Part shown: positions 5,138 through 64,000 of the stretch, piece by piece
How the letters are laid out: each line of letters starts with the position of its first letter
Numbering within the stretch: the first letter of the stretch is position 1
Source of the DNA: Mobula birostris
Taxonomy: Eukaryota
DNA: 64,000 nt
Direction: 5' to 3'
Assembly: GCF_030028105.1 (NCBI RefSeq)
Contig: NC_092394.1
Location: 51,314,477-51,378,476 of the forward strand
The notes under the pieces: model-generated
Database searches by the model: none
What the model was told of the DNA's origin: nothing
Seen by the model: only the letters and a program-made list of their open reading frames with translations
Made by a program: the position numbers and the translations under genes

Positions 5138-7350
5138 AAGGCACTTACTCTAAAACCATAAACTGAAATAAAAGAGACGGGAATGTTTAAAGTGCCGTTG
5201 GACAGAGGCTGCATACACTTCCTATGGGGATGTACAGGGAAATGTTGGTCTTGCTCTTTTTCCAGAAGAGTGGGAAAATACAGGGAAGCGGGAAGCACCA
5301 GAGGTTGCACCTGGAAGGTCAGAGCTGGACTCTGCCTGTTCTAGCGGAGGAGAGCAGCAAGGCTCTGCGGCTGATCAGCACTGACGTAACATTGTCCAAC
5401 AGTGCTAGTTGGACAATGTGGAAACAGAGACTTAAAATATTGACAGATCTAATACCTCTCGAGGGTCTGAGCACAATGCCACACCTCTCTACCACCGGGA
5501 CATCTATTAGTAGAAGATGATTCACAGGAATTTACCCACAGTTTGGGATCAGATAGAGTCCATTCAGTCAGTTTACTCCTGCAATGGTTCACCTATTCAT
5601 TCGCACACCCAGACTTTGACATCAGCTTTTAAAATTATGAATAATTTAAAGAATTCAAGGAATTGTTTCTCACAGAGCAGGTGAGCTCTCCCTAAACTCC
5701 TGGCCAAAATCAATCAATGAACCTATAACACTGAATCCCACTGACATTGGCAGGATGCCCTGAGGTACTTCATAGCCAATTACATACTTTAAGAGCTGTC
5801 ATTGTGTAATGGAAAGGAGCATGGCAGGCAGTACGTACATAACCATGTCCCTAAAAGAGCCACGAGATACTCAATCCAATCACGTTTCAGCAGATGCTGT
5901 AGGAAAAACATTGCCGGGATAAGGAGAAATCCCCAGCTCTTCTCGGAACAAAGCATTGAAACCTGGGCCCCGACCTTGTGCTTGACTTCCTCCAGTCATG
6001 CCCAGAGCTATAACCTTCCAATTCAGCTGGGACAGGATCTCTCACTGAGGTGACAGTGTATGAATGCACGGCTGCCACATTTTGTCCCACATTTGTCATA
6101 AACATCAAGAAACTATGTACCTAATCTGCATAATTTATTCAAGTGTAAGGACCCATCAATTCGAGGGGGGAGGGGGGAGGGGGGGAGAGGGGGGAAAAGG
6201 AGGGAGAGGCTCTTTGGTTCAACTCATCCACGCTGACCACGCAGCCCACCGAGCTAGTCCCATTTGCCTGTGTTTGGCTGATATCCTTTGGTTAACAGAA
6301 GGGGTCCAAGGCATTAAAAAGATTTGGAACTTCTGTTCGAGACTTTCCTAATCATGAACTTACCCAAGTATCTTTTCGAGAGAGGGAGAGAGAGAAAATA
6401 TATAATTTCATTCCCAACTGTGTCAGTCTTGACAAAAGCTCATCAACCTGTGATATTTTTTTTTCTCTCCACAGATGCTGCCAAATCTGTGAATTATTTC
6501 CAGCATTTTCTGCTTTGCACAGATTTCCAGCAGCTGATTGGTGGGCCATCCCCTCGTCACCTCGAGCAGGAGGGGGCTCGGTCGCTCCTGAGACATTGAG
6601 TCCCTCTTGATGCTACAGACATAGTGCTGCACTGCCTCCTCAGGTGAATATGATACTCCCTGACTGGGCGGATCCTGACTGACCTCTCCATAGGTTTCTG
6701 CAGGGAATGAGATAATGAACCAATCCTACAAATAATTTCCCCAGGGATGGCAACAAGAGCAGGAAGAAATGGCAAGCTGTCATATGACGAGAACAGGGAT
6801 GCAATATAACGTCTTGACAGTTTGGAAAAGGTGAAAGGGTCAGGTGTGCTGATTTCTGATTAAGGCTGCTGAGGCTTTATTCCATGTCTTGCCCCTGCTG
6901 TCAACGCACTGACAAATCACCACACTACAGGGTGACCAAAATAGAAGTGTTTAATTCCTCACCTTGATATCGTCTAAAAATTCAACCTCAAAAATACATG
7001 AAACAATCTGACAGTAACACGCTGTAAAAAATAAAGATCTTTGCACCCTCTGCATTTACACATTACTGCTATTTTTAATGCTTGTCAGATTGAATAAAAG
7101 GGAGAAAAATATTAGCAATGTTTGTTGGGAGACAAGTTAACTGAGTAGCCGTAAATCAGGAGTGATTTTAAAATTATCCATTTGCACTTTAGAGGTAGAG
7201 CAAACTGTAAATGCATGTCAAAACATCCGGCCTACCCAAGTCACTACCATCTCACATGCATTCCACACCATAAACAGCTAAGATGCTAATAATACAAAGG
7301 ATTTGAATGGTCTTTCTTTCTTGGGAAGATTGTGTTGACATTGGAGCGAT

Positions 7351-7535
7351 ACACATAAAATGTTGGAGGAATTCAGCAGGCCAGGCAGCATCGAGGAAAA
7401 GAGTAAACAGTTGACGTTTCGGCCTGAAACATCGACTGTACTCTTTTCCATAGATGCTGCCTGACCTGCTGAGTTCCTCTAGCGTTTTGTGTGTGTTGCT
7501 TGGATTTCCAGCATCCGCAGATTTTATCTTGCTTG
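7351..7535. repeat. Palindromic (head-to-head) Penelope terminal fragment
   Basis: Two ~70-bp arms, acacataaaatgttggagg...gacgtttc and gaaacatcgac...ttttgtgtgt, are reverse complements around ggcct. Confidence 0.75.
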
Positions 7536-10789: not shown

Positions 10790-12040
10790 TACTTGTCAGC
10801 GTGGAGCAGAGTGCAAATTTGTAAATCTGGCAGGAGCAAAGGGTGTTGGGAACAGGGAGGGTGAAGTATCATGGGTGGAGTGTGGGTCAGGTAGCAGAAG
10901 AGTGCCAGGGGCATGGAGGGGCTGGCGCAGGTGCGGACACACCCAGCCCTGAGACACCAGGCAAGGTCATTGGATTCCAAACAACTGGTTTATTGATCAT
11001 TACAGAATGTCTCTCTGGTGCTTCCCCTTCCCCTTTTCCCCAACCATGATTCCCCTCTCCCTGCCCTCTTCCCACTCTCAGTCCACAATAGAGACCCAGA
11101 TCAGAATCAAGGTTTATCATCACTCACATATGCCGTGATTTTTTTTTGCAACAGAAACGTGCAATTGCATAAAACTACCACAGTTCTGTGCTAAAGTCTT
11201 AAGCACCCTAGCTATATGTATGTGCACAGTATTGTACATCACTTTTTAATATGCTTATTAACATTCACACTGAAACACTAAACAGATATATACATAGAAC
11301 CATGGGCACAGAGACACAGATATGAACATGTAGACACACACACTCACACAGTCCCTGCCTTCAATGGCATTCTTCACAGGACAATGAATTATAGCCGTGC
11401 ATTGAGTGCAGTTGGTCTGGTCTTGGACCTGACAAGTTGGGCTCAGCGTGCACTTTATAATCGTTGTGAGTTCAATTTCCCTAGCTGAGAAAACCTGTTT
11501 CTTCACCCTCGCTCATATAGATTACAACCTGACTTCAGATCAAAGTGACTTCCCAAAATTAACATTGGAGAGGTTGCATTTCTGGAATATGGAGTTGCAT
11601 CCTCCCTACTAAAGTGGCAGGAAACTGCTAGCTCATTGTCACCATTTCTTGGATCACCTGTCACTTTAATTCTCCACTTTTCTCTCACTCTGCCACTGGT
11701 ATCTTATATTGTTCCAACAAAGCCCAATAAACCAATGAGAAACACGAACTTGCCTCCTGACTAGGCTTGTGACAGCTTTCAGAGATTAACACTGAATTCA
11801 AATATTTCAGATAACCAGCCTTTCCAGTTTGTGTCAGAACTGGCCAGTCATAATGATAGCTCATCTTAGTCTTTACTTCGAACTACCTTTATAAACTTAC
11901 TTATGGAATGATCTGTCTGGATGGCATGAAAACACAAGGTCTCAGTTCATGTGGCATGATAGACCAATTACCATGTTAAGTATGTTTATCTCTTTACACA
12001 GACACAGCCTGCTCTGCTGGCTATCTCCCCACTTCCCGCT

Positions 12041-12077
12041 CAGTCCTGAAGAAGGGCCTCAGCCCGAAAAGTCGACC
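12041..12077 (+). ncRNA. Minimal hammerhead-ribozyme-like motif in a Penelope end fragment (12015-12180)
   Basis: cagtc CTGAAGA agggcctcagccc GAAA a GTC gaccg: both core boxes, helix II and helix I (cagtc/gaccg, one mismatch). Confidence 0.6.
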
Positions 12078-12746
12078 GCTCACTCTTTTTCACAGATGCT
12101 GCCTGACCTGCTGAGTACTTCCAGCATTTTGTGTGTGCTGTTTTGGGTTCCCAGCATCTGTAGACTTTCTCATGTTTGGGTATTTCCAACACTCCATTGC
12201 AGGTTTCCAGCAAATGTTTGTATCTTACAGTTCCAGCAACTCTATTTCTTCTTTCTCTTAACCATCGTAAACACTCACTACTACCACCAGCAGCACACAG
12301 CAGCCACCGCCTGTACCATCCAAACAATGTACTGCAATTCCCCACCGGATAAACCCAAACCTGCGACCCTAACTAGGAAGAAGGTCAAGGTCAACAGGTA
12401 TGTGTAAAGACCACTACTGCAGATGCCCTTTCAATCCATGTACCATTCTACCCGGAAATAATCCTTCTGTGTTGATAGCTACAAGTCCAAGAAGCCCCCA
12501 TCTCACTCCAGGGGGAGCACCTTCGTCAGAAGGAAACAGATGCTCAAATGGACTATGAGGAATGAGTGTCAGCCTTGCCTTATGTAGATTAATTCATTAA
12601 ATAGAATTTTACAGAATTACTCCACTCACTATTCATTTAATTGACCCGGTTCCTAAAAAGTACTCCAAAGTTAGGAACTATTCAATCGTTCTACACCCTA
12701 CCAATTAATCCAACTGCGACATATATACTTAGCCCACTCCCTGGCC

Positions 12747-12924
12747 ATGAAACATACAATTACCCCAACTATGAACAATATAATAATTCCACTCCCTGAC
12801 TGGGAAATATACAATTACTTACCTTTATAATGTACATGTATTATAAAGGTAAGTAATTGTATATTTCCCAGTCAGGGAGTGGAATTATTATATAGTTCAT
12901 AGTTGGGGTAATTGTATATTTCAT
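12747..12924. repeat. Near-perfect ~85-bp inverted repeat with 8-nt loop
   Basis: Arms 12747-12831 and 12840-12924 are reverse complements with 2 mismatches. The loop is gtacatgt. Confidence 0.92.
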
Positions 12925-17215: not shown

Positions 17216-18589
17216 TCAGAATGTTCCACACTTGCAGAGTGAACAGACTGGTGGGGCATCTTCCATCTCAATCAACTGCAGTAATATTATCTGTCACAAT
17301 CCTTAACCAGGCGGCTTAAAATGAAAGAACAATAGAGAAGGAAATAGGACAAGGTACAAAATGTACTAAAAGTGAGAAAAGAGGAGAAACATTGTGTTAA
17401 GATTTGAAAGAATGGAAACAGAAGGGACAAGAAAACACGTAAGCAAAGTAACTTCAAAGTATGAATTAAAAACTGCACGTTTTCAATTTGTTCCGAAGCA
17501 GAAAATGTCCAGTGATGTTGCAAAAGCATAGATAATTGTGCTGTTAAGTTCCAAGCCCGACTTTCTATGGTGAGTCCAACTAACATCTAGATGCAGAAAT
17601 TCCGAAGAATTTATGGATCTTCAGGAGAAGATGGTGGCTTTGCCAGAATAGTCATTTTTTAAAACAAGTTATTGCCATTTTACAATTTATTACCCCTTCC
17701 TGGTGAAGGTTCTAATCGATTTACACAGTAAAACAGCATAAACGATAAAACATGATTGTATGCAAAGTCAGAGGAACAGTGCTGTGTGCAGTTGACAGGG
17801 AGACCTCTCATTCTGCTTTGAAGCTTTCTCTTGGTTTGACCTCCTAGGACAGTCACTAATGGACGGTCTCTCTATTAAGTCAATCCTGGAATCAGAGTTC
17901 AAAATGCTCTTACAGGGCAACCTGGAGTGGGTTTAATAATTTATGAAAAATACAGAACAATCTATTAAACTTGCACCTGCAACCTACATCCGATGGTGGT
18001 AATATACAAAGGATTTAGGAGTTGGTTGTCAAAACCACCCTTTCGCTCAGCATCGGTAATGAATTCGTATAATTTTAAGAAAAGGAATCCCATTTATACA
18101 ATTAATCTCGAGAGACTACCCCCCCCCCCCCCCCATTAGCGGTCCTTCGCCATTTTACGTCCTCAACCTCTACGGGTAATGAAGAACCACGGCGAATAAG
18201 GAGAGACTGCGAACTGGTAGCTGAAGATCGAAACTACAGAAGTCAGGAGTGTAGCAATGCATCCACTGACCGGGCCCTTTTAATCCTCCCATCGAACCCA
18301 GCCAGCAAGTTAACGGTGTCCTGTCAGCGGGTTTGACCCGCTCGGCTCCATTGTTTCTGGGGTAATCCGGAACCGCTGCGCGATTGCGAAGAGACGACCC
18401 GGCCAAACTGCCCACGAGCTTGCGATGGCGCCTCGGGGACAGGTAACCCGAGACCTCTGCGCATTCTTCCCCGGGATGCCCGGAACAAGACGGAGCTGAT
18501 GTGGGTTAGGGTCAGGATCAAGTTCAAGAGAGACAGCGGACACCTTGGCATCCCATCTCCTTAACGACTCGACCCATTTCAATGGAGCG

Positions 18590-18832
18590 AGCTACCAGAC
18601 GAGGTGGTTGAGGCGGATACATTAAAAACATCTTTAAACCAATTTCCGCCGGGATCAATAAAGTATGACTATGACTAGGACTATATAAAAAAAACACTTG
18701 GACAGGTACACAGACAGGAAAGGTTTAGAACGATCTGGGCCAATGCGACTGTTTGTAGTTCAGAAGGGCATCTTTGTCAGTACGGACGTGTTGGGCCGAA
18801 GGGACCGTTCTCGTTCAGTGCCCTATGACTGA
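18590..18832 (+). mobile_element. CR1 3' end fragment with a small inserted aataaagtatgactatgac tail
   Basis: Matches CR1 3' sequence elsewhere in the window (gaggcggatac...ttgggccgaaggg). Confidence 0.6.
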
Positions 18833-18948
18833 AACCCATCAGCGGGGAGCAGTGGCCACTGGTGTCCCCGCTGGAGACCCCCCGCCCCCCAAGGCAGGTG
18901 CATAAGTTTCCCTGTAAGGTGCCCCACGCCCCGGTGGTTAGCCGTTAC

Positions 18949-19162
18949 CTGCCACAGTGTAGCGATCCATGTAATTCACCACGTAGCCGAAGCTCAGCAC
19001 CCCCGCTGCGATGTGCGGGCGCAGCCGGTACAGCGCCCGGAATTTCTCCGCCGGGCTGGATGCCGAGTCGCCGATCGGAACCGAGCCGCTGAGCGTCTGG
19101 ATCTCCTCCGAGGAGACGGAGACCGAGAGCGGGCACTCGGACGTGTCCTTATCCACACACAT
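18949..19162 (-). CDS. SPNS2: SPNS2 (spinster homolog 2, MFS sphingosine-1-phosphate exporter), first coding exon
   Basis: ATG at 19162 gives MCVDKD...EEIQTLSGSV...AAGVLSFGYVVNYMDRYTVAG. This matches recalled vertebrate SPNS2 N-terminal motifs (EVQTLSGSV; AILSLGNVLNYLDRYTVAG). The exon ends at a phase-1 donor GCA G|gtaacg, with the intron starting at 18948. It lies in a CpG-rich region. Confidence 0.93.
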
Positions 19163-20788
19163 CTTCCCTGGGAGCCGCAGCCTGTGCCGGGGTAACCGAG
19201 GCTGTTGGAACCTGTGTCAAGCTCCTCCTTAAAAGCAAGCAGCACCCGAGTGTGTGTGTGTGTCCGTGCGATAAACAGCGTATTTACATCTACCTCGGCA
19301 TGCACAAGGATCCCGCGCCCACCGATCTTGCCATCCAATGCAATCATTTAAGACGCGATGGCTCTAAATTCCCACTCCACTAACGCGTGGTTTCCGATTA
19401 ACCTCGTCCCTCCCCCTTTGGGTTTCCCTGGGCGTCTCTAACACAAGCCCGAAATACGTTGGCCAAATGAACGTGAGGGTGCAATAACGCTTCCTCTAGC
19501 GCTCGGAGAAACGCGGCTCCCGACCAGCGCTCTGAACATCCTTTGAATTGATCCTTCCCCAAACACCCATTGTACCTCTTTCTTGTCTGATTTCAAATGG
19601 TATATCACTGCATTTATCTGTTTACAGTTCACACTCGTCCGAACTATTCCCTTATTTTAAACCTCACTCAGATTTTAAAGCAAGTTGTTATGAACTTGCA
19701 AATCGCGCAGAATATTTAAAGTTCAGGCAGGGCTTCCTGAGTTTCTAATTTTGGAGGGTTTTTTTTTGGTTTTATTCCGTATTTTGTGAGAAAATTGTTG
19801 AGTTTATGGACGTAGGAAAGTTGCTTAAATTACTCTGCGTTTCCCATGAGAAACTTTTAGCTTTTCCCCGAAGGATGGAGGTACCGAAAGCGATCGGAAT
19901 AAAACGCGGTAAATTGGTGCACGGATGAGAATGACAGTCGGTGTAGTTGCCCCTCTGTCGTAGCCTGAGGTGGCAGTAACTGTTGGCGCTGATTCCCCGG
20001 CTGCAAGTCTCTTTCCAGGGGCTCGAGCACTCGTCGCTGGAGGGGGGGGGTGCTGTGTCTTGGGAGTTCCCCCACCTCATGCGACGCTGAAGGGAGCCTC
20101 CAACTGCAGTGGGGCACCAAAAATTCCAGCTCCCTGCTGAGTGAGAGTTATCTCCCTGCTTTCGGGTGACAGGGCGGGGTAGCAGGTGAAGCTGCTGCCT
20201 GACTTGCACATTCTGCCTGTGACCACCGGGTGCTACATTCCCTCCCACATCCCAAAGACACAAAGGCCAGTCATCTAAATGTAGCTGTAAATTGTCCCGA
20301 GTGTGTAAGTGGGGGGAGTTGTTGGGAATGTGGGGAGCCATTCTACATGGAAAATTAGTGGAGGGATGGGAATTGCTCTAAGATCCAGCCTTGAATCCGT
20401 GGATTGAGTGGCTTTCTTCTGTGTTTTATGGGAGAATAGAACGTCAGTGCCTCAACCAATAACATGAAAACTACTCTCTGGTTGTCTGAGAGATGTTCTT
20501 GTGCCAGCATTGGTTTGCTTCCCCCCCCCCCCCCCCCCGCAATGTTACAACAGTGACTATATTTCTAAAGTACTTCATGTGTTGCACTGAAGGGTGTGAA
20601 CATGTTTCAATAGGTACATTTAATGCTAGAGAAATGTATACAATATACATCCTGAAATTCCTTTTCTTCACAGGGGGAGGGAACCTCGACTCAGACCACG
20701 AGGGGCCTGTGTCGGGCATTTTCATGCCTTACAAGGTGCAGATTGGAAGTCTGTGTGGGGCGCCACTCCTCACACAGACTAGAGCAAT

Positions 20789-21689: not shown

Positions 21690-22905
21690 TGCGTGAGAAC
21701 TTTGTGCCAATTCTTCCGTTCCACGTTTATATTGCAAACTCCCTCTCACCACGGTTCTCTCAGCTATACCTTTTCCCACACTATCTCCTGTAAAAATACT
21801 ATTCTCTTTTCTCAGTTTCTTTGCCTCTACTGCATTTGTTCCCAGGACATGGCTTTCTGTTCCAGGAGATGTCCTCCTGTTTCAGATAATGGGTTTTTCC
21901 TCCCTCTACTATTGATGCTGCCCTTGTCCGCATCTTCATTTCCCCTACGTCTGTGCTCACCACATCTTCCCACCACCTTAATAGTAACAGGGTCCCTCTT
22001 GTCCTTATCTACCACCCTGTCAGCCTCCGCAGCTTCCACCATCTCCAAAGAGAACCTACCACTAAACATAACTTTACCTCCAACCCCCCCCCCACCGCCT
22101 TCTGCAGGGATCACTCCCTCCCCACTAATCTCCCTCCAGGCATTTATCCCTGCAACCTGCCCATTCACGTCCTCCCTCGCCCCCATTCAAGGCCCCAAAC
22201 AGTCCTTCCAGGTGAGGCAACACTTCACCTGCAAATCTTCAGGGTGGGGTGGTCTATTGTGTCTGACGCTCCTGACGTGGTGTCTTCTACACTGGTGAGA
22301 CCCGTAGTAAATTGGGAGACCGCTTTGTCGAGCACACCCACACCATCCGTCACAAGCAGGACTTCCCGGTGGCCAAACATTTTAATTCCCATTCCCATTC
22401 CCATTTCCCATTCCTGGTCCCGTTCTGATGTGGTGATCCCCGGCTTCCCCTTGTGCCAAGATGAGGCCACCCTCAGGGTGGAAGAGCAACACCTTACAAT
22501 CCATCTGGGTAGCCTCCAACCTGATGGCACGAATATTGATTTCTCCTTCCGGTAAACAAATCATCCCTCCCCCCACACACTTTCCTCTATTCCCTCACTC
22601 TGACCTTTGAATTCCTCAAAATTGCCTATTACTTCCCCCTGGGTCCCCTCCTCCTTCCCTTTCTCCCATGATCCATTCTCCTCTGCTATCAGATCCCTTC
22701 TCCTCCAGCCCTTTACCCTTCCACCCAACAGGCCTCACCTATCACCTTCTAGCTAGCATCCTTTCCCTCTCCCTCCCCACCTTTTTATTCTGAGATCTTC
22801 CCCCTTCCTTCTCAGTCCTGAAGAAGGGCTTGGACTGATATGTTTATTCATCTCCATAGGTACTGCTTGACCTGCTGAGTTCCTCCAGCATTTTGTGACT
22901 GTTGC
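21690..22905 (+). mobile_element. Penelope-like element, 3' part (GIY-YIG region and terminal repeat)
   Basis: RVPLVLIYHP, IQGPKQSFQVRQHFTC, FYTGET...LGDRFVEH and LGSLQPDGTNIDF, then a pyrimidine-rich tail and the shared terminal motif. Confidence 0.85.
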
Positions 22906-23339
22906 TCTTACCATTCTTAGCGTTGCAGTATTCATTTCTGTTTCTTGTAACTCCTTTTTGCTCACCATTCCTTATTGATAATGTAAAAGATAAAATTAAA
23001 ATGGAAAAATAACGAGAAAGGAATCAGTGATTTCAAAATTAAGAGCGAATCTCACTTGTTCCGGTTTTATGTTCAAACACAACTTCTTTAGAAACTACAA
23101 ACAGAGGAACTCAGTGGATGACCTGTCTTGATGCAGAGAATAGACATGAAGTGTCAACAATTCCTTTCCAACTGCCAATGCTGTTTGATCCACTGAGACT
23201 CTGCAGTAATTGTGTATCGCTCCAGTACAGAGTCTGCATTCTCTTGTGTCTCCACTCTTTCCTGGAAACTAGCTGAGCATGAAATACCCCGGTATTTTGG
23301 TAGCTTGGGCTGGTAACTTCCAACTAACTGAGCTGCTTA

Positions 23340-24570
23340 AGTCAAGTTGCTTTTTATTGTCATTTCCACCATAAACTGCTGGTACACAGTAAAAATGAAA
23401 CAACGTTCCTCCAGGACCCCATGGTGCTACATGAAACAACACAAGACTACACTAGACTAAGTGAGACAACACAAGGCTACACTAGACTACATAAGACAAC
23501 ACAAAAACTACACTAGACTACAGACCTACACAGGACTACATAAAGTGCACAAAACAGTGCAGGGCAGTACAAAAATAATAATCAAGACAATAGGCACAGT
23601 AGAGGACAAATTACAATAGAATAATAAATAATGTAGATGTTAGTCTAGTCTCTGAGTATTAAGGAGTCTGATGGCTTGGAGGAAGAAACTGTTGCCCAGT
23701 CTGGTCGTGAGAGCCCAAATGCTTTGGTACCTTTTGCCAGATGGCAGGAGGGAGAAGAGTTTGTATGAGGGGTGTGTGGAGTCCTTCACAATGCTGTTTG
23801 CTTTACGGATGCAGCATGTGGTGTAAATGTCTGTAATGGCGGGAAGAGAAACCCCGATGATCTTTTCAGCTGACCTCACTATCCACTGCAGGGTCTTGCA
23901 ATCTGAGACGGTGCAGTTCCCAAACCAGGCAGTGATGCAGCTGCTCAGGATGCTCTCAATACAACCCCTGTAGAATGTGGTGAGGATGAGGGGTGGGAAG
24001 TGGACTTTTCTCAGCCTTCGCAGAAAGTAGATATGCTGCTGGGCTTTCTTTGCTACAGAACTGGTGTTGAGGGACCAGGTGAGATTCTCCGCCGGGTGAA
24101 CACCAAGAAATTTGGTGCTCTTAATGATCTCTACGGAGGAGTCGTCGATGTTCAGCGGAGAGTGGTCGTTCTGTGTCCTCCTGAGGTCCACAACCATCTC
24201 TTTTGTTCACATTCAGAGACAGGTTGTTGGCTCTGCACCAGTCCGTTAGCCACTGCACCTCCTCTCTGTATGCTGACTCATCGTTCTTGCTGATGAGACC
24301 CACCATGGTCATGTCATCGGTGAATTTGATGATGTGGTTCGAGCTGTGTGTTGCAGCACAGTCGTGGGTCAGCAGAGTGAACAGCAGTGGACTGAGCACA
24401 CAGCCCTGGGGGGCCCCCCTGCTCAGTGTGATGGTGTTGGAGATGCAGCTCCCGACCTGGACTGACTGAGGTCTGGTGTTGCAGAGGGAGGTGATCAGGC
24501 CCAGCAGTTTCAGCTTTCCAATCAGGTGCTGAGGAATGATTGTGTTGAACGCTGAATTGAAGTCTATCAG
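23340..24570 (-). mobile_element. Rex1/Babar-like LINE, RT and 3' end
   Basis: [38 protein letters not shown] and NSFFLQAIRLLN. A short tandem repeat lies in the 3' UTR at 23430-23540. Confidence 0.88.
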
Positions 24571-24834
24571 TTTAACAGGCACTGAAAGAGATTTAGTATT
24601 GTATTTCTTATCCAGGAAAGCAAAGAACAGAGGGGGAGAAAAACTCAGTAAGTAGGCAGGAACAGACACCTCTAGCTTACTCAGTTTTAAAATGGTGAAG
24701 TTGCTGTTTTACTCGAACATTAACAATATCGACACAGCCTTAAATGTATACATTGAATAAGCAGATCACGTTTAAATGTTTCATTGGGAACAGGAGCACT
24801 GGGAGGGACCTGTGCACTACCAACTAACATACCA

Positions 24835-25040: not shown

Positions 25041-25703
25041 GCTGAGTAGGGAATTGAACAAAATAAGTTACATAGGAATTGCATTGATGGGACGCTCTGA
25101 AAGCTATCCTCAACTCAATGGGCTGAATAGCCTTCTAAAATATGAAATAAAGTGCAAGCTTTTTTTTTGCTGTTCTGGCGACATTTAGCATTGATCCTGT
25201 GAGGCAGAGTGAGTGAAGTGTTCCATTTCCCAGCAGCATGAATGCCACATTATTAGGTGAAGAGAGAATTCCGCTAACAGCCTTTATGTAGACAGCATTT
25301 GGAGGCCAATTAAGTCGTTTTGAAGTGTAGGCACTGTTGTAACGTGGAAAACACAAAAGCTGATTTGTGCAGCTCAGTCTCTCACAAGGTGGGATAAAAG
25401 GACAGATAATCTGATTAAGACATTGGTTGAGGAATAAATATTGGCCAAGGCTCTGGGAGTGCTCCCTGTACCATGTGTGTCTGAGAGGGCAGGCAGGATC
25501 TTGATTTAATGCCTCACTTGACAGAGCAGAACTCCCTCAGTACTGCACTCAATGTCAGCCTGTGCAATAGACTTGTTAAATGGTGGGTGCAGACCCATGC
25601 CCTATAATCTGAGGCAAGTTCAATTATCATTCCACTCTACATGGGTATCCATGAATACAGCCAGACAAAACAGTGTTCCCCTGGGCCCAAGATGCAAAAC
25701 ACA

Positions 25704-26240
25704 ACAACACACACAGAATGCTGGGGGCAGGCAGATCTATGGAAAAGAGTAAACAGACAACGTTTCAGGCCGAGGCCCTTTATCAGGACTGGAATAAAAG
25801 TTGAGGAGTCAGAGTTAGAAGGTGGAGAGAAGGGAGGAAGAAGTACAAGTGAAACTGGGGGGGAGGTGAAGTAAAGAGCTGAAAGAGATACAGGGCTGGA
25901 GAAGGGGGAATCTGATGGGAGAGGACAGAAGATTGTGGAAGAAAGGGAAGGGGGAGGAGCACCAGAGGGAGCTGATGGGCAGGTGAAGAGATGAGGTGAG
26001 AGGGGGAAACAGGAATGGGGGAATGGTGAAGGGAGGGGGGGGGCAACTACCTGAAGTTGGAGAAATTGGTTGGAAGCTATCCAGATGGAATATAAGTCTT
26101 ACCTGAGTGTGGCCTCATCGCCGCAGTCAAGGAGGCCATAGACTGACATGTCAGAACGGGAGTGGGAAGTAGAATTGAAATGGATGGCCACCACGAGATC
26201 CTGCTTTTTTGTGGCGGACGGACTGAAGGTGTTCAGCAAA
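25704..26240 (-). mobile_element. Penelope 3' fragment with degenerate hammerhead motif at 25754-25791
   Basis: Reverse complement of the 22320-22900 segment. Flanked by gcaaaacaca at 25694-25703 and 26236-26245. Confidence 0.8.
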
Positions 26241-26784
26241 ACACAGTACCAGTAGTCATACACAGCACAAGGCACATGAAGTACATATGTACATATAAGG
26301 TAGCAGCAAGCATACGGTCACACAAATATACTGTATATACTATATATATATATCTATATATATAGTCCCTGAGTGAACGTTCTGTGAATTGATGGTGTAT
26401 GGGCTTTGTCGGCAGGAACAAGCTCTCAGCTGTCCGCAGACAAACGCACACATACAATCCAGCTTGTCTTCCACTGAGTGAACAGTGGAGGACATACCAA
26501 TGGGAGAGGCCAGCCCCCAATCCAGCACTGGCACCACACCACACCACCTCCGGCGTCTCCCCTTCTGGGCAGCTGCAAAAAGCAAGCCCGCGGTAAGAGG
26601 CCTGGTCCTAGCTACAACCAGAGTCACACAGCTCCCCTGCTGTGGGTCTCACCAGTAAACCGGTGAACCAGACTCGCAGTATTTTACATTACCAGTGTCC
26701 AAACAGGGCCTTCCAATTGCAAGAGTAACGCCCAGGACAATCACTCGCACAAACACTACGTTACATAAACATGAGAAGTCCAGA

Positions 26785-27145
26785 GCAACACACACCAAAC
26801 ACTGGAGGAACTCAGCAGGTCAAGCAGCAACTATGGAAACGAATAAAGAGTCGACGTTTCAAACTGAGACCCTTCTTCAATACTGGAAATGAAGGGGGAA
26901 GTGGCCAGAATGAAAAGGAGGGTGGAGGGGAAGGAAGGTAGCTAGAAGCTGACAGGTGAGTGGGAAAGGTTAAGGGCTGGAGAAGAAGGAATCTGAGTGG
27001 AGAGGAGAGTGGACAATAGGAGAAAGGGAAGGAGAGGGGACTCGGGGGAAGTGACAAACAGATGAGAAGAGGTAAAAGGTCAGAATAGAAGAAGAAGAGG
27101 GGGGTATATTTTTACTGGAAGGAGAAATGGATATTCATACCATCA
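26785..27145 (-). mobile_element. Penelope terminal fragment
   Basis: Shared terminal motif ctggaggaactcagcaggtca...gtcgacgtttc followed by the purine-rich tract. Confidence 0.75.
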
Positions 27146-31171: not shown

Positions 31172-34100
31172 GGGGCATCACACAAAATACTGGAGGAACT
31201 CAGCAGGTCAGGCAGCATCTGTGGAGGAAAATGGATAATCAATCTTTCAGGTCGAGGGGAAGGGTGGAGCACCAGCTGGAAGGTTCCAGATGAGGAGGGG
31301 TCGATAGACAGATGAGGGAGGGGAGAGTGGTTCCAGATGAGGAGGGGTCGATAGACAGATGAGGGAGGGGAGAGTGGTTCCAGATGAGGAGGGGTTGATA
31401 GGCAGATGAGGGAGGGGAGAGTGGTTCCAGATGAGGAGGCATTGATAGATGAGGGAGGGGAGAGTGGATCCAGATGAGGAGGGGTTGATAGGCAGATGAG
31501 GGAGGGGAGAGTGGTTCCAGATGAGGAGGGGTCGATAGACAGATGAGGGAGGGGAGAGTGGATCCAGATGAGGAGGGGTCGATAGACAGATGAGGGAGGG
31601 GAGAGTGGATCCAGATGAGGAAGCGTTGATAGGCAGATGAGGGAGGGGAGAGTGGTTCCAGATGAGGAGGGGGTTGATAGACAGATGAGGGAGGGGAGAG
31701 TGGTTCTAGATGAGGAGGGGTCGATAGACAGATGAGGGAGGGGAGAGTGGTTCCAGATGTGGAGGGAGTTGACAGACAGATGAGGGAGGGGCGTGTGGTT
31801 CCAGATGAGGAGGGGTCGATAGATGAGGGAAGGGAGAGTGGTTCCAGATGAGGAGGGGTCGATAGACAGATGAGGGAGGGGAGAGTGGTTCCAGATGAGG
31901 AGGGGTCGATGCCAGTGTGGGAGTGGGAAGTTGCATTAAGATGGGTGACCAACAGGAGATCCTGGCTGGTGCAGCTGATGGAGCAAAGGTACTCCATGAA
32001 GCAACCCCCCAGTGTGTGTTGCGTCTCACCAATGTAGAAGAGGCCACATGGGAGCACTGGATGTGATAAATGATACCAGGAGAATCACATGTGAAGTTCT
32101 GCCTCATCTGGAAGCATTGTTTAGGGCCTTGAATGATGGTGAGGGAGGAGGTGTGGGAGCAGGTGTAATACTTAGCATGACTGAAGGAGTAAGTGCCAGG
32201 AAAAGGGGTGGGATTGCAAAGGGGAACTAACGGATAAGAGAGTTGCAGAGAGAGTGATTCCCGAGGAAAGTGGGGAAGAAGGATGCACCAGGTAGTGGGA
32301 TTCTGTTGGAGGTGATGGAATTTGCAGAGAAAATGTTGGATGTGTTGGCTCATGAGGTGGTAGTGAGGACAATGGGAAGTCCATCCCTGTTATGTTGGGA
32401 GGTTGATGGGGTGAGGACAGATGTAGAGGAAAAAGAAGAGTTGCAGTTGAGGACTGCATTGACAGAAGTGGAGGTAAAGCCTATTTTTTTAATAAAAGAA
32501 TACATATTGGATGTTGTGGAGTGGAAAGTCTTGACACAAGAACAGATGTGGTGGAGACAGAGGAACTGAAAAAAGAAAATGCAAGTGACAAAGTGGGAAG
32601 AGGTGTCGTTAAGGTAAATGTGGGAGTCAGCGGGTTATGCATTACACTGGTGGATAATCTGTCTCCTGAGGTGGAGACAGAGAGATCAAGAAAGAGGAGA
32701 GAGGTGTTGAAGATGGACTAAATGAACTTGAAGGTGGATTGGAAGTTGGTAGTGAGGTTGATGAATATGATGAGCAGGAAACAACATCAACAGCAATGCG
32801 GTCGGCGATGTTGTGGAGGAAGTACCGGGGTAGGTTTGAAATATGGATTGCCCTGTGTAGCTAATGAAAGGGTAGGCATAGCTGGGGTCCATGTGAGCGC
32901 CCCGGCTACATCTTTGGTTTGGAGAAAGTGGGAGGAGCTAAAAGAGAAGTTGTTGACAGTAAGTACAATTTCTGCCAGATGGAAGTTGGTGTTTGTGGAG
33001 TAGAATTAGTTGGGTCTGCTTTTCCCAGAAAGGAACAGAGGAGCTCTGAGACCTTCCTGATGGGGGATAGAGTGTATAAGGTCTGGACACCCATAGTAAA
33101 AATGTGGTGGCCAAGGTCAGGGAACTGAAAGCTGTTGAAGTGTTGGAGAGCATGTGAGGTATGAGCGCTACAAATGGGAAGGGACAAGGTGGAGTCAAGG
33201 TATGAGGAGACCAGCTCTGTTGGACAAGAACAGGCAGAAACAATGGACCCATGTGGTTTTGTTGTGAGGGGGTAGAAATGGAAGTGAGGGCTGAGGAACA
33301 ATGAGGTTGGAGACTGTGGAGAAAGAGCTCCAGAAGTGATGAGGTTGGTGATGGTGTGGGAGATGGTGACCCAATGATCACTGGTGGATTCCCAGTCCAG
33401 AGTAGGTAAGAGGAGATGTCAGAGAGATGCGGTCTGCAAGGAAGAGGTCAGTTTGCCAGACTACAGGGCCAATGCCCCTGACTGTAGGTTTGATGTTGAG
33501 GTTGGGATTGGTGTGGAGAGAGTAAAGACAAGTGTGTTCAGAGGGGGTGAAGATAGGGTGAGTGAGGGGAGAGGCAAAGTCAAGATGGCTAAAGATCTAT
33601 CACCAGAGTGTGCAGTAGGCCAGGGGGATGTGAAGGAGGAAGACAAGGGCTTGAGTTGGGAGAATCCTTGACAAAGAAGCAGGCACAGAAGCATTAGAGG
33701 AACAGCTAGGTGTCATGGTGGGTGCAGAACTCATTGAGGTGCAGAGGATGAAGGTAATGTCCCTGCTGAGGACAGAATGTTTGGCTTTAGAGAGGGTCCA
33801 GTCAAAGTGGAAGGTAAAAACAGAGCAGAGTTTGGAGAAGAGATCAGAGGAAGGCAGGTTGAAGGCCAGTGGGGGCTGAAAGGAGTGAAGGGGGGATAGG
33901 GGTAGGGGGAGGTGTGAGAAACCAAGGATGTGGGGGGAGTTGTGATGGATGAAAAGGAGCATTAGGACCTAATAGTGGCATGAGAGCTCTTGACCAAGAC
34001 GTGACCAGAGCCAAGGTCTGAGCTGGAGGCTGCAGGGCTTCAGCCCAGAAACAGATGAGCTCCTGGTCTCGAGGAAAGAGAAGAGCTGATGGTTGAAAAC

Positions 34101-34462
34101 GTGGATCTGGCGGTGGAAGAATAAGTCAAAGGTGTCTGGCAGAGTGAGGTTCAGAGCTGTGGGTGAGAAAGGGAGATGGCCAGCAGGTGTCTGTGTGTAG
34201 AGGAGAGGCTCACACGTAGAATCTGGCAGGAGGAGTGGAAAAGAAGCCCGTCAATGAGAGGTAGGTACCTGAAATCTTTGCTGGGGCCAACTGAGAGGCC
34301 TGGGAACAGAGCTGGAAGCTACATGGCACAAGATGGCGGCACAGGCAAGTGCTCAGGGAGAACCCAGGGCTGTGGAAGCAGGTCTGGGTGAGCACGTAGT
34401 TGAAGAGCCAGAGAGCATTAGGGAACTCAAGGGGTTGGGGAGCAGTGAGAGGATCTCACATT
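31172..34462 (-). mobile_element. Near-full-length decayed Penelope-like retroelement (RT + GIY-YIG)
   Basis: RT motifs IVSACSCPTELVSSYLD, FTMGVQTLYT and MDPSYA; linker GPKQCFQMRQNFTC; GIIYHIQC...GLFYIGET. It appears inserted into a minus-strand Rex1 tail (31020-31170 and 34463-34755). Confidence 0.88.
31284..31910. repeat. Purine-rich 47-bp minisatellite, about 13 copies
   Basis: Unit ccagatgaggaggggtcgatagacagatgagggaggggagagtggtt. The 47-bp period is seen between 31286 and 31333, with some shorter units. Confidence 0.95.
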
Positions 34463-40429: not shown

Positions 40430-41890
40430 TGCTATGGGCGGCCCCACTTGCTTCAAAACGACAACAGTTATGCCAGTGCCTAAGAAGAATAACGTGGGCT
40501 GCCTTAATGACTATCGCCCAGTAGCACTCACATCTACAGTGACGAAATGCTTTGAGAGGCTGGTCATGACTAGACTGAACTCCTGCCTCAGCAAGACTCA
40601 TTGTAACTTGCCTGTCACCACAATACGTCAACAGCAGGTGCAGTCTTAATGGCTGTCCACACGGCTTTAGACCACCTATGTCAGGATGTTGTTCGTTGAA
40701 TATAGCTCAGCATTTAATACCATCATTCCCATAATCCTGATTAAGAAGTTGCAGAACCTGGGCCTCTGTACCTCCCTCTGCAATTGGATCCTCGACTTCC
40801 TAACTGGAAGACCACAATCTGTGTGGATTGGTGATGACATATCCTCCTCACTGATGATCAATACTGGCGCACCTCAAGGGTGTGTGCTTAGCCCACTGCT
40901 CTACTCTCTAGATATACATGACTGTGTGGCTAGGCATAGCTCAAATACCATCTATAAATTTGCTGATGATACAACCATTGTTGGTAGAATCTCAGATGGT
41001 GGTGAAAGGGCGTACAGGAGCGAGATATGCCAACTAGTGGAATGGTGCCGCAGCAACAACCTGGCACTCAACGTCAATAAGATGAAAGAGCTGATTGTGG
41101 ACTTCAGGAAGGGTAAGATGAAGGAACACACACCAATCCTCATAGAGGGATCAGAAGTGGAGAGAGTGAGCAGTTTCAAGTTCCTGGGTGTTAAGATCTC
41201 TGAGGATCTAACCTGGTCCCATCATATCAATGTAGTTATAAAGAAGGCCAGACAGTGGCAATACTTCATTAGGAGTTTGAAGAGAGTTGGCATGTCAACA
41301 AATCCACTCAAAAACTTCTACAGTTGTACTATGGAGAGCATTCTGACAGGCTACATCACTGTCTGGTATTGAGGGGGGGCTACTGCACAGGACCGAAAGA
41401 AGCTGCAGAGGGTCGTAAATCTAGTCAGCTCCATCTTGGGCACTAGCCTACAAAGTACCCAGGACATCTTTAGGGAGCGGTGTCTCAGAAAGACAGCGTC
41501 CATTATTAAGGACCTTCAGCACCCAGAACATGCCATTTTCTCACTGTTACCATCAGGTAGGAGATACAGAAGCCTGAAGGCACACACTCAGCAATTCAGG
41601 AACAGCTTCTTCCCCTCTGCCATTTGATTTCTAAATGGACATTGAACCCTTGGACACTACCTCAATTTTTTAATATACAATATTTCTGCTTTTTGCATGT
41701 TTTTAATCTATTCAATATACATATACTGTAATTCATTTACTTATTTATTATTATTATTACTTTATTTATTTTTTCCTCTTCTATATTATGTATTGCTTTG
41801 AACTGCTGCTGCTAAGTTAACAAATTTCACGTCACATGCCAGTGATAATAAACCTGATACTGATTCTGATTCTGATTCGGATTCTGATTT
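40430..41890 (+). mobile_element. Rex1/Babar-like LINE (5'-truncated) inserted in CR1 ORF1
   Basis: [11 protein letters not shown]; a 228-aa open RT at 40686-41372 with [13 protein letters not shown] and YKFADDTT; (gattct)n tail. Confidence 0.92.
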
Positions 41891-50793: not shown

Positions 50794-51381
50794 GTAAGAG
50801 AAGAGGAGTCCTTGAAAGTAGGCCCATAGGAAACGACAGCAGATCAGTGTACCAGTCGCTATGCATGGGTCAAAGGATTTCTCAAGGCAAAAGCTATTTC
50901 TTCCGTGTTATTTCAAGATAGCTTTTGTTGCTACCGCTTCTTTTCTGAGAAAAACAGTCAATAGTATGAATGCCTGCCAAGTGATTCACACCTGTCTGTT
51001 GCTTCATCACCCTTGATAAATTCCAATATGAAAAACAATCTCATCTTTCTGATGTGGCCTGCTTCACTCTTTCATCCGCTTTCTCAGCTGTTTATTAAAC
51101 CTGAGCTTTGGGATAACATTTAGCTACAGGAGGCAACTTGTGTTACTCTAGAATGGGTGTAATGTAGGTCTGAGGGATTCCAGTTTCAAAGTGCACTTTG
51201 GAGACAAAGTACAACATATTCTCGTGGAACTGGATTGGAGTGGAACCTGTGAGGATAGAGAGAGAGACTTCAGTGAGCCATGAACAAGCCACAAATCAAA
51301 TGATAACAATAATATAAATGATGTCGTTCAAAGTATTTTACAATGAGATAAAGTGTAAACATAAAGAAAAGGACAAAATGA

Positions 51382-51482
51382 ACAACACACACAAAATGCC
51401 GGAAGAACTCGGCAGGTCATATAGCATCTATGGAAATGAATAAACAGTCGATGTTTCTGGCTGACCCTTCTTCAGGACTCGG
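51382..51482 (-). mobile_element. Penelope terminal fragment with hammerhead-like motif at 51445-51480
   Basis: Reverse complement reads agtc CTGAAGA agggtcagcca GAAAC ATC gactg. Confidence 0.65.
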
Positions 51483-52194
51483 GTGCTCTACATTTTCAGC
51501 ATCTGCAGAATCTTTCGCATTTCACAGGGAGGATGTACAAAGACTCCTTACGGAGGACACCGGAATCGAACTCCAAACTCCAAAGCCCCGAGCTGTAATG
51601 AGAATCAAAATCAGGTTGAATATCACTGGCACATGTGGTGAAATTTGTTAACTTTGTGGCAGCAGTTCAATATAAATATAGAAGAAAGACTTAATTGCAG
51701 GATTATATATATAAAATAGAGGATATAATATATGTGTATATTAAATAGTTAATTTAAGAGAAGTAGTGCAAAAACAAATTTTAAAGAAATACTGAGGAAT
51801 TGTTCATGGGTTCAATATCCATTTAGGAATTGGACGGCAGAGGGTGTTGTGCTTACAATGGTGCCCAGTATTTTCAAGTCGGGATTCTCCGTGACTTGTT
51901 GGGGAATTTACAGCCGTTGGCTTTGCCACGTCCCTACTATACTTGTCCTTCTCAGTGGTAGGAATCATGGACAGTGGAGTTTCTGCTGGGATAGCCTTGG
52001 CAAGTTACTCCAGCTTATTTTGCAGAGGATGCACACCTTCAGGCACAGTGGAAGGTATGAAGGTCAATGGACTGCTTTATCATGGATGGCAACAAGCTTC
52101 TTCTTGCAAGTGGAAAATGTTTCTCATAGGTGGCAGAAAGGGTTGTCAGAGGGGAATCACTCACCACCGGATACCCGCTCTCTGATTATGATGA

Positions 52195-54592: not shown

Positions 54593-55440
54593 GGGCTGAT
54601 AGGCCTTGTTCTATGTCATTTAACTGATTCTGTAGTATAAATACAAGCAGCTTGTTTTTATATTACAGCTACTGTCCATCTAGAGTCCAAAATGGTGGCA
54701 TGTTTATTCTCAATGCCTAAGGTTCTGACCATTTTGGAGATAGTGATCATAATTCTATCTCCTTTACAATAGCATTGGAGAGAGATAGGAACAGACAAGT
54801 TAGAAAAGCGTTTAATTGGAGTAAGGGCAATTATGAGGCTATCAGGCAGGAAATTGGAAGCTTAAATTGGGAACAGATGTTCTCAGGGAAAAGTACGGAA
54901 GAAATGTGGCAAATGTTCAGGGGATATTTGTGTGGAGTTCTGCATAGGTACGTTCCAATGAGACGGGGAAGTTATGGTAGGGTACAGGAACCGTGGTGTA
55001 CAAAGGCTGTAATAAATCTAGTCAAGAAGAAAAGAAAAGCTTACAAAAGGTTCAGAGAGCTAGGTAATGTTAGAGATCTAGAAGATTATAAGGCTAACAG
55101 GAAGGAGCTCAAAAAGGAAATTAGGAGAGCCAGAAGGGGCCATGAGAAGACCTTGGTGGGCAGGATTAAGGAAAACCCCAAGGCATTCTACAAGTATGTG
55201 GAGAGCAAGAGGATAAGAGGTGAAAGAATAGAACCTATCAAGTGTGACAGTGGGAAAGTGTGTATGGAACCGGAGGAAATAGCAGAGGTACTTAATGAAT
55301 ACTTTACTTCAGTATTCACTCTGGAAAAAGATCTTGGTGATTGTAGTGATGACTTGCAGTGGACTGAAAAGCTTGTGCATGTAGATATTAAGAAAGAGGA
55401 TGTGCTGGAGCTTTTGGAAAGCATCAATTTGGATAAGTCA

Positions 55441-56087
55441 AACAACAGGAATTCTGCAGATGCTGGAAATTCAAGCAACACACATCAAAGTTGCTGGTGA
55501 ACGCAGCAGGCCAGGCAGCATCTCTAGGAAGAGGTACAGTGGACGTTTCAGGCCGAGACCCTTCGTCAGGACTAACTGAAGGAAGAGCTAGTAAGAGATT
55601 TGAAAGTGGGAGGGGGAGGGGGAGATCCAAAATGATAAGAGAAGACAGGAGGGGGAGGGATGGAGCCAAGAGCTGGACAGGTGATTGGCAAAAGGGATAT
55701 GAGAGGATCATGGGACAGGAGGTCCGGGAAGAAAGACAGGGGGGGGGAACCCAGAGGATGGGCAAGGGGTATAGTCAGAGGGACAGAGGGAGAAAAAGTA
55801 GAGAGAGAAAAAGAATGTATGTATAAAAATAAATAACGGATGGGGTACGAGGGGGAGGTGGGGCATTAGCGGAAGTTAGAGAAGTCGATGTTCATGCCAT
55901 CAGGTTGGAGGCTACCCAGATGGAATATAAGGTGTTGTTCCTCCAACCTGAGTGTGGCTTCATCTTTACAGTAGAGGAGGCCGTGGATAGACATGTCAGA
56001 ATGGGAATAGGGTGTGGAATTAAAATGTGTGGCCACTGGGAGATCCTGCTTTCTCTGGTGGACAAATCGTAGGTGTTCAGCAAAGTG
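55441..56087 (-). mobile_element. Penelope 3' fragment inserted in CR1
   Basis: Reverse complement of the GIY-YIG C-terminus, pyrimidine tract and terminal motif. It interrupts CR1 after ggataagtca. Confidence 0.85.
55537..55574 (-). ncRNA. Minimal hammerhead-ribozyme-like motif (best-preserved core)
   Basis: Reverse complement reads agtc CTGACGA AGG gtctcgg CCT GAAAC GTC cactg. Confidence 0.65.
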
Positions 56088-56877
56088 ACGGGAGACGTTC
56101 CAGAGGATTGGAAGGTTGCAGATGTTGTTCCTTTATTCAAGAAAGGGAGTAGAGATAACCCAGGAAATTATAGACCAGTGAGTCTTACTTCAGTGGTTGG
56201 TAAGTTGGTGGAGAAGATCCTGAGAGGCAGGATTTATGAACATTTGGAGAGGTATAGTATGATTAGGAATAGTCAGCATGGCTTTCTCAAGGGTAGGTCA
56301 TGCCTTACAAGCCTGATTGCATTTTTTGAGGATGTGACTCAACACATTGATGAAGGAAGAGCAGTAAATGTAGTGCATATGGATTTTAGCAAGGCATTTG
56401 ATAAGGTACCCCATGCAAGGCTTATTGAGAAAGTAAGGAGGCATGGGATCCAAGGGGACATTGCTTTGTAGATCCAGAACTAGCTTGCCCACAGAAGGCA
56501 AAGAGTGGTTGTAGACGGGTCATTTTCTGCATGGAGGTTGGTGACCAGTGGTGTGCCTCAGGGATCTGTTCTGGGACCCTTATTCTTCGTGATTTTTATA
56601 AATGACCTGGATGAGGAAGTGGAGGGATGAGTTAGTAAGTTTTCTGATGACACAAAGGTTGGGGGTGTTGTGGATAGTGTGGAGGGCTGTCAGAGGTTAC
56701 AATGGGACAGTGATAGGATGCAAAACTGAGCTGAGAGGTGACAGATGGAGTTCAACCCAGATAAGTGTGAAGTGGTTCATTTTGGTAGGTCAAATATGAT
56801 GGCAAAATATAATATTAATGGTAAGATTCTTGGTGGTGTGGAGAATCAGAGGGATCTTGGGGTCTGGGTCCATAGGA

Positions 56878-63039: not shown

Positions 63040-63545
63040 CTGGTATGGAAGTTGTCCTGTCCAAGACCGGAAGAAGCTGCAGAAGATTGTGAACACGATG
63101 CAGCAGATCACACAAACTTATCTTCCGTCCTTGGACTCACTTTACACCGCACGCTGTCGGAGCAGTGCTGCCAGGATAATCAAGGACACAACCCACCCAG
63201 CCAACACACTTTTTGTCCCTTTTCCCTCCGGGAGAAGGATCAGGAGCTTGAAGACTCGTACGGCCAGATTTGGGAACAGCTTCTTTCCAGCTGTGATAAG
63301 ACTGCTGAACGGATCCTGACCCGGATCTGGGCCGTACCCTCCAAACAACCGGACCTGCATCTCAGTTTTTTTGCACTACCTTACTTTCCATTTTTCTATT
63401 TTCTATTTATGATTTATAATTTAAATTGTTAATATTTACTATCGATTTGTAATCCAGGGAGAGGGAAGCGCAGAATCAAATATCACTGTGATGATTGTAC
63501 ATTCTAGTATGAATTGTTTGGTGACAATAAAGTATAAAGTATAAT
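63040..63545 (+). mobile_element. Rex1-like 3' end
   Basis: IIKDTTHPAN...PSGRRIRSLKTRTARFGNSFFPAVIRLLN; tail aataaagtataaagtata. Confidence 0.85.
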
Positions 63546-64000
63546 TCAGGTTTATTGTAAAAGGGTAGTTAATGGTCAGCACAGACTCGATGGGCCAAAG
63601 GGTCTGTTTCTACACTGTATGACTCAATGGTTCTATGGATAAATGCTAGTCAGGATTTGTTTTTTCAATGTTGTGCCAGGTGAGGATAACTTGGATCATA
63701 ATGTAATGCTTCATTGAGTCCAGATAGAGGGTCTTGACCTGAAATGTCGACAGTTCACTTATCTCTGAGATGTTGCCTGGCCCTCTGAGTTCCTCCAGTG
63801 CTTTGTGTGTTGCTTTCTTTGCAAAAATGTTGCTTCTGGCCATTCATTGCTTTTCAGTTAAGGCAAGGGCTATCAGGTCCTTCTCAGGCTGAGAGCTGAA
63901 CCCCAAACCATCTTCCACAACAAACGAGATGGTAGTGATGCTTTCCTTGATCAAGTTCAAAACTGACCACTTTAGCAAAGCACTGAAACTTTCAGGGTCT

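Follow-up and report, generated by a model that had tools for sequence, protein, structure and literature searches.

The motif at positions 55537-55574 of the window, the whole 64,000-nucleotide stretch of Mobula birostris DNA analysed here, is almost certainly a minimal type I hammerhead within the pseudo-LTR of a Neptune-type Penelope-like element, and the window copies are dead 5'-truncated insertions of that element. The association of hammerheads with Penelope elements is itself already published. On balance, the ends and junctions of the genomic copies lead us to favour a working model in which the element RNA starts at the hammerhead, is occasionally cut in vivo, and yields a leader that is captured by the reverse transcriptase (RT).

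Analysis of the window with a profile built from six of its copies gave 17 matches, about 10 of which hold hammerhead sequence (Table 1). An earlier note, made from the letters of this DNA, had named five motifs, beginning at 55537, 12041, 51445, 25754 and 26848, and all five were recovered at these positions and on the strands assigned to them. The three partial copies that it listed needed some revision: 63717-63752 is indeed a degenerate full motif on the plus strand, the copy at 22813 consists of the 5' half alone with an internal deletion, and 7408-7438 sits at the junction of two back-to-back arms, each carrying the 3' half of the motif only. At least one damaging change was found in every window copy, in agreement with the remark that no single copy here is perfect; the complete set of core boxes and NUH triplet is lacking in the damaged copies at 25754, 26848 and 63717. 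The note had also proposed a scan with hammerhead models, and an Rfam scan of the window with its damaged copies at E<=10 gave 16 matches, none of them to a hammerhead family.

Table 1. Penelope-derived features of the 64-kb window, with the positions of the predicted cut and of the inferred RNA starts.
Feature	Position	Strand	Remarks
Hammerhead, young subfamily	55537..55574	-	G to C at +1 (helix I closing pair broken), U at 11.1
Layout of the same hammerhead	55537..55574	-	Helix I 5' strand, CUGANGA, extra A, 4-bp helix II with tetraloop, GAAA, ACGU palindrome, GUC
Predicted scissile bond	55541..55542	-	C17 at 55542 is -1 and 55541 is +1; from hammerhead numbering and the junction pile-up in other copies
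C-terminal end of Penelope-like ORF (GIY-YIG end and stop codon), 5'-truncated	55866..56084	-	tblastn with the L083 ORF, 75% identity
Pyrimidine-rich 3' UTR / pseudo-LTR upstream of hammerhead	55575..55865	-	
Two overlapping initiator-like hexamers	55570..55579	-	A at -36 (55577) and A at -32 (55573), inferred RNA 5' ends; from the genomic 5'-end hot spot
Tail past hammerhead, up to the longer 3' end (+103)	55439..55536	-	
Older short copy	12035..12185	+	Hammerhead 12041-12077 (C15.2 lost) and tail
Older mini-copy from helix I	51378..51485	-	Hammerhead 51445-51480 (G16.2 and 2 loop bases lost) and short tail
Older 3' fragment	25700..26242	-	GIY-YIG end (26068-26242), UTR, hammerhead 25754-25791 (G8A), tail
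Older copy	26780..26890	-	Hammerhead 26848-26885 (C3U) and tail, UTR upstream
Old mini-copy from helix I	63709..63818	+	Degenerate hammerhead 63717-63752 (three core changes) and tail
Old 3' fragment	21720..22908	+	RT thumb, zinc linker and GIY-YIG remnants (21720-22546), half hammerhead and tail (22809-22908)
Two tail arms back to back	7344..7503	.	Joined inside loop II; each arm with 3' hammerhead half only
Old decayed near-full-length element	31179..34416	-	ORF remnants 31908-34416, partial hammerhead and tail 31179-31256

Alignment by blastn revealed that 55439-56084 (minus strand) is the final 646 bp of a retrotransposon, 93% identical to the full-length element L081, with endonuclease end, pyrimidine-rich UTR, hammerhead and tail following one another on a single strand. 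Decayed ORF pieces likewise lie upstream of the motifs at 22813, 25754 and 31179. When 15 window frames were compared with Pfam, none of the seven decayed Penelope frames was matched, and the RT matches belonged to other retroelements, whose RVT_1 fragments lie at 4030-4377, 14437-14889, 24121-24708 and 40671-41372. A LINE-type RT remnant on the plus strand (54721-55500 and 56073-56471) is interrupted by the young Penelope fragment in antisense orientation; its two halves seemingly do not abut, which suggests that target sequence was lost at insertion. The 3' UTR of the old near-full-length element contains an expanded tandem minisatellite (31247-31935, minus strand). Elsewhere in the window, 12744-12928 forms a long near-perfect palindrome with an inner duplication, resembling a MITE, and the sub-threshold Rfam microRNA matches there are due to the hairpin only. 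A 77-codon open frame at 18941-19171 (minus strand), which resembles a host coding exon and is without Pfam match, lies in the GC-richest part of the window (18001-20000, 0.517).

The complete element was reached by a protein search of the genome, from which eight stretches were examined. In two of them, L081 and L088, two hammerheads about 3.5 kb apart flank one ORF with RT and GIY-YIG domains, so that the placement of the motif at a Penelope terminus, already put forward from the letters, holds. Pfam matches of the L083 ORF to RVT_1 (E 7e-6) and GIY-YIG (E 0.0037) were both below the curated cut-offs. A DKG motif is present in the ORF, and a Cys-X4-Cys-X2-Cys linker separates RT and endonuclease in L081, L083, L084 and L087; the Neptune clade was assigned from these motifs alone, and the linker is common to Neptune and Nematis. 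A pseudo-LTR from a partial tandem (a 1.47-kb direct repeat in L081), an inverted truncated partner (41 of 100 sampled junctions) and an optional tail (two 3' ends) are all present. Every ORF seen in the stretches examined was broken or truncated and none was intact. The main ATG lies about 140 nt past the predicted cut. In L081 (3403-3460) another ATG, 21 nt past the cut, lies in the frame of the main ORF, and a stop codon closes it at the first (+66) tail end. The near-identical copies L033, L034, L036, L038, L041 and L086 on contig C1 (8.07-8.27 Mb) share a change at position 15.2 and are probably a segmental duplication.

Positions are numbered from the predicted cut after GUC, C17 being -1 and the next base +1; this places C3 of CUGA at -28 and the helix I 5' strand at -32..-29. 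Three subfamily profiles (129, 22 and 13 copies) were obtained by grouping 387 unique matches by their flanks. All three share the core boxes CUGANGA and GAAA, the helices and the ACGU palindrome, core and palindrome being invariant. Their differences are confined to N7, loop II, position 11.1 and the flanks, a pattern that suits a hammerhead. The anatomy first proposed thus stands for the core boxes, the GUC and the palindrome, and fails for helix I, described as 5 bp, which has 4 bp and a variable fifth pair: an older subfamily has C-G there, the young one has U.G, and the third leaves the two bases unpaired. Helix II is present as claimed, corrected to 4 bp with a tetraloop and preceded by an extra A between 9 and 10.1. 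The 10.1-11.1 pair is G-C in one subfamily and G.U in most young copies, which form the commonest subfamily.

Covariation among copies, which the earlier note had named as a test, was not observed: no compensatory pair occurs across the three subfamily profiles, whose helices are nearly identical, and a targeted search returned only CpG-decay variants of the same subfamilies among the 100 of 1,714 matches listed. Excess conservation among young copies, named there as a further refutation test, appears unsuitable, since inserted copies would decay neutrally while selection acts on the source elements. Folding predictions gave -6.8 to -8.7 kcal/mol for the active monomer with 4-bp helices I and II, and -9 to -13 kcal/mol for the minimum-energy monomer, an inactive hairpin in which the first core box pairs with the cleavage triplet. 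A double-hammerhead dimer is feasible (-11 to -16 kcal/mol) and weaker than inactive dimers (-27 to -31 kcal/mol). These features match the published class, whose minimal hammerheads lie in both pseudo-LTRs and are weak and dimer-dependent (PMC4209133).

The genome of 4,014,635,230 bases contains 33,423 exact matches (16,490 + 16,933) to a 33-nt stretch of the young motif and none to its reversed control, so the motif is not due to chance. A degenerate core pattern that permits CpG decay and loop variants gave 91,708 matches, again with none for the control, which bears out the very large genomic population that had been anticipated; a 30-nt stretch of the tail matched at 63,097 places. Core and helices were intact in 36 of the 76 young copies spanning the motif and lost in 40.

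Copy ends were determined for the first 100 of the 63,097 tail-match places, unselected for the hammerhead and all on contig C1. Their 3' ends were bimodal, with 48 below +85 and 52 above, and modes near +66 and +103, about 37 nt apart. By analogy with an anole element, the two ends may reflect a double internal RT start. The sampled copies comprised 41 with back-to-back arms, five with direct junctions and 54 joined to flank. The uncut bond was included in 98 of the 100, and none started at +1.

Enrichment at the predicted cut site had been named as the test before the junctions were searched. Hammerhead-to-hammerhead joins in head-to-tail orientation numbered 58 in the genome, at 54 loci, and the upstream unit ended unambiguously at -1 in 21 of them (20 of the 54 loci; p 1e-10 against a uniform distribution over 15 positions). 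Microhomology was absent in all 21. Ten further tandem joins ended at -2, six of them with G replacing C17, and neighbouring C positions were little used (one doubtful case at -4, four at +3). The 20 loci with -1 joins had 3' flanks unrelated to one another, fell into five junction types and carried several subfamily marks. No upstream unit reached 5' of -37 (0 of 54, of which 49 were measured and five were too short to align), whereas 58 of 93 ordinary copies did, and later slippage of random copies is therefore excluded. Taken together, the unrelated flanks, the junction types and the 5' limit indicate that the -1 joins arose independently, during insertion, from RNAs starting at -37..-31.

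The other side of the bond was examined by searching for 5' ends between -4 and +7 under a strict CpG rule, which gave 1,061 matches, of which 100 were listed and 94 analysed. Among these, 28 of 94 ends fell at +1 in the 11-position window. Half of the +1 ends are arms joined to the hot spot at -33..-26, often through the helix I complement, and part of the +1 peak is microhomology. With arms so partnered set aside, 14 of 64 ends among the matches listed remained at +1 (p 0.0016), and in flank-only junctions the enrichment was not significant (4 of 21 among the matches listed, p 0.12). A general search for 3' breakpoints inside the hammerhead was swamped by 1-nt indels (100 of 599 matches listed).

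Control regions without the cut site temper these figures. Between +29 and +42, 80 tandem joins were found, 14 at +35 and 13 at +36 (by eye; 4 of the 80 unassignable), and between +10 and +23 there were 39 joins, about 14 of them at +20/+21 (by eye). The region -19..-6 placed 17 of 92 rows at one microhomology and is comparable in that peak alone, many rows ending at the anchor or being short fragments. Jumping to internal sites is therefore frequent and varies from place to place. Of about 43 comparable positions, -1 had the most joins, though just 1.5 times as many as the second, in search windows that differ in sensitivity; the chance of a preselected site ranking first is about 1 in 43. 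The p-values against a uniform distribution overstate the case for cut-site enrichment. Since a helix boundary coincides with the scissile bond, the RT could also be guided there by structure alone.

Arrays of 68-72-nt units (-32 to about +35), with junctions that all differ, were found at G000:C3:207501963-207502206, C9:167541040-167541206 and C25:27364291-27364467. They are possibly repeated RT jumps within one insertion and seeds of retrozyme-like repeats. An identical, complex three-part back-to-back junction occurs at four unrelated loci (L063, L103, L116 and L223).

It is quite possible, if short of probable, that the element and its RNA start are as described but that cuts by the hammerhead in vivo are rare or absent. 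The peaks at -1 and +1 would then arise from short microhomologies and from RT that pauses at the helix I boundary of uncut RNA and primes anew. Peaks of 13-17 joins where no ribozyme bond exists fit this explanation, as do the repeated-jump arrays at +35/+36, the span of the uncut bond in nearly all sampled copies and the preference for the inactive fold. In the anole, internal homology-free RT starts were shown, and no RNA reads were found to end at the cut site (PMC11167929). Against it, the most used landing site is the preselected one, most -1 joins lack microhomology while nearby C positions are little used, and enrichment occurs on both sides of the same bond. The junctions hint at hammerhead cleavage in vivo without proving it, and we regard such cleavage as about an even proposition.

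A further part of the favoured model, an RNA that starts at the hammerhead, draws on the 5' ends. In the C1 sample, 21 of the 100 copies began at -33..-30, that is 21 of the 52 that began within -100..+19 (p 8e-18). A search for starts in helix I gave 10,823 matches; among the 100 listed, 60 of 81 informative starts fell at -33..-31 (by eye), 30 at -31, 22 at -32 and eight at -33, after 19 rows were omitted (16 intact copies of other subfamilies and three ambiguous). Two A residues, at -32 and -36, fall within hexamers that we take to be initiator-like. The hot spot at -33..-30 is probably a transcription start on this sequence, and transcription from -36 or -32 would, as seems likely, make the hammerhead the first 40 nt of the element RNA, recurring at its 3' end. 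A G precedes all seven acceptors at -36, as a cap would leave. No such excess of G was seen at -32 (6 of 22), where C was the commonest preceding base (11 of 22), nor among single-base insertions in the control region +29..+42 (about 6 of 20, by eye).

The region directly upstream has another side. In the window copy (55577-55600, minus strand) and in all young copies, a branch-point-like sequence, a pyrimidine tract and an AG stand directly before helix I. The Penelope element of D. virilis has a TATA-less promoter in its pseudo-LTR and an intron between start and hammerhead (PMC2377424), and that intron ends at helix I (PMC4209133). The junction rows examined held no copies in which a common upstream exon had been spliced to the AG that precedes helix I.

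It is unlikely, though worth considering, that the hot spot at -33..-30 instead marks a place where RT stops or the cDNA folds back on helix I, or an end made by processing, for example at a splice acceptor. It coincides with the 5' strand of helix I, fold-back joins via the helix I complement were observed, C is the most frequent base before -32, and the pyrimidine tract with AG recalls the D. virilis intron that ends at helix I (PMC4209133). Such an origin accords poorly with the 10 of 21 hot-spot copies that join plain flank, with the target duplications on several of them (8 of 18 short flank-class copies), with second templates that never extend past -37 (0 of 54), and with the G before each of the seven starts at -36 and the absence of a shared upstream exon in the junction rows. 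A transcription start remains the reading that we prefer.

In the mechanism that we propose, RT would start internally at about +66 or +103 of the element RNA. A start in the downstream hammerhead copy would give long truncated insertions, and a start in the leader would give mini-copies of 100-135 nt beginning at helix I; two RNAs per insertion would produce the back-to-back arms. Alone, the RNA would form the inactive hairpin, and it seems an even chance that a complex of protein and two RNAs lets the ACGU palindromes pair, with an occasional cut after GUC. Hammerhead dimers reportedly cleave (Luense et al. 2017). At the RNA 5' end the RT may jump templates; it would land on the released 32-37-nt leader, at its free 3' end, more often than at any other single site, yielding tandem hammerheads that end exactly at C17. 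RT template jumps can rely on single-base pairing. PMC12039810 mentions that related RTs jump between templates, the anole Penelope protein is predicted to be a dimer, and protein-assisted hammerhead cleavage is described for the anole (PMC11167929), with which the inactive minimum-energy hairpin of the monomer is in line. Because nearly all copies derive from uncut RNA, cleavage is dispensable for insertion; its likely role would be the late or occasional removal of a capped leader and not routine unit-length processing. More tentatively, the genome may preserve a countable fossil record of germ-line cleavage by a Penelope minimal hammerhead, with the capped leader released and captured by RT, sometimes repeatedly.

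An action of the dispersed copies on host RNA, which the earlier note had raised and by which intronic or mutually antisense copies would pair with, cut or misfold transcripts, is improbable. So large a number of near-intact cores, about 92,000, makes it likely that a single pre-mRNA will hold neighbouring copies in tandem, and back-to-back arms form long hairpins. The proposal is weakened because cores are damaged, in all window copies and in the 40 of 76 young copies without intact core or helices, and because the inactive hairpin is preferred; moreover, anole cleavage required the element protein (PMC11167929). We likewise give little credence to a vestigial hammerhead kept as a promoter or protein-binding sequence after catalytic capacity was lost in this lineage, for which the absent covariation, the G.U at 10.1-11.1 in the dominant subfamily and an overlap with the inferred start site that could account for conservation all speak, since N7, loop II and flanks vary across the three profiles and core and palindrome do not, and junctions peak at the scissile bond.

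The approximately 92,000 near-intact cores allow junction statistics beyond the reach of smaller families. The model of a hammerhead-initial RNA with occasional cleavage makes three testable predictions: capped starts at -36/-32, a 32-37-nt product with a cyclic phosphate at C17, and a core-dependent RT jump at that site. Should it be true, the ribozyme would be a decapping switch on the element's own transcript, the junctions would show the birth of retrozyme-like tandem units, and they would give the first evidence of in vivo activity that we found, in open-access PMC and bioRxiv, for hammerheads of endonuclease-containing Penelope elements. Should the predictions fail, the element would be an ordinary, very abundant member of a described class.

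Reviews state that the in vivo role of Penelope hammerheads is unknown, and open-access PMC and bioRxiv yielded no account of junctions piling up at the bond where endonuclease-containing Penelope elements should be cut. The Terminon study is said to treat telomeric Terminons as a case in which the hammerhead is tied to element ends. Units of the non-LTR retrozymes, reported in one chondrichthyan genome (10.64898/2026.07.22.740005), are tandem type I hammerheads derived from Penelope pseudo-LTRs, a likeness to the joins seen here; unlike them, the units here are 28-72 nt long, occur as two to five repeats at single loci, and most copies are solitary. There was no sign that tandem units spread as a family of their own, the 58 joins lying at unrelated loci with unique flanks and varied junctions.

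Comparison with the metazoan Penelope minimal hammerheads (Cervera and De la Pena 2014, PMC4209133) revealed the same type I organisation, core boxes, extra base between 9 and 10.1, helix III reduced to the palindrome and helix I of 4-5 bp in both pseudo-LTRs, as well as mostly solitary, dispersed copies and opposite-strand pairs. Supplement file 2 of that study yielded no shark, Callorhinchus or Leucoraja entries. With 33,423 exact and 91,708 degenerate matches, the motif is more numerous here than the 4,000-9,000 copies given there for coelacanth and Xenopus, figures obtained with another search method; helix II has 4 bp as against 7-8 bp in Schistosoma, and the G.U at 10.1-11.1 of the dominant subfamily is unlike the hammerheads described in that article (PMC4209133). 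Like the Poseidon element PAc of Anolis carolinensis (Frangieh et al. 2024, PMC11167929), the M. birostris element has two apparent internal RT starts downstream of the hammerhead, an optional 30-40-bp tail, uncut RNA as the main template and a ribozyme that is predicted to be poor alone. PAc belongs to the Poseidon clade and its ORF starts inside stem II, while the present element has a Neptune-type linker and an ORF about 140 nt past the cut; for PAc no in vivo ends were seen at the cut site, where genomic joins are enriched here (PMC11167929). In layout the element resembles the Neptune clade (Craig et al. 2021, 10.1101/2021.04.23.441226), with which it shares an RT, a zinc-finger linker and GIY-YIG at its C-terminal end, as well as partial tandems, an inverted 5'-truncated partner, a tail and a pseudo-LTR hammerhead.
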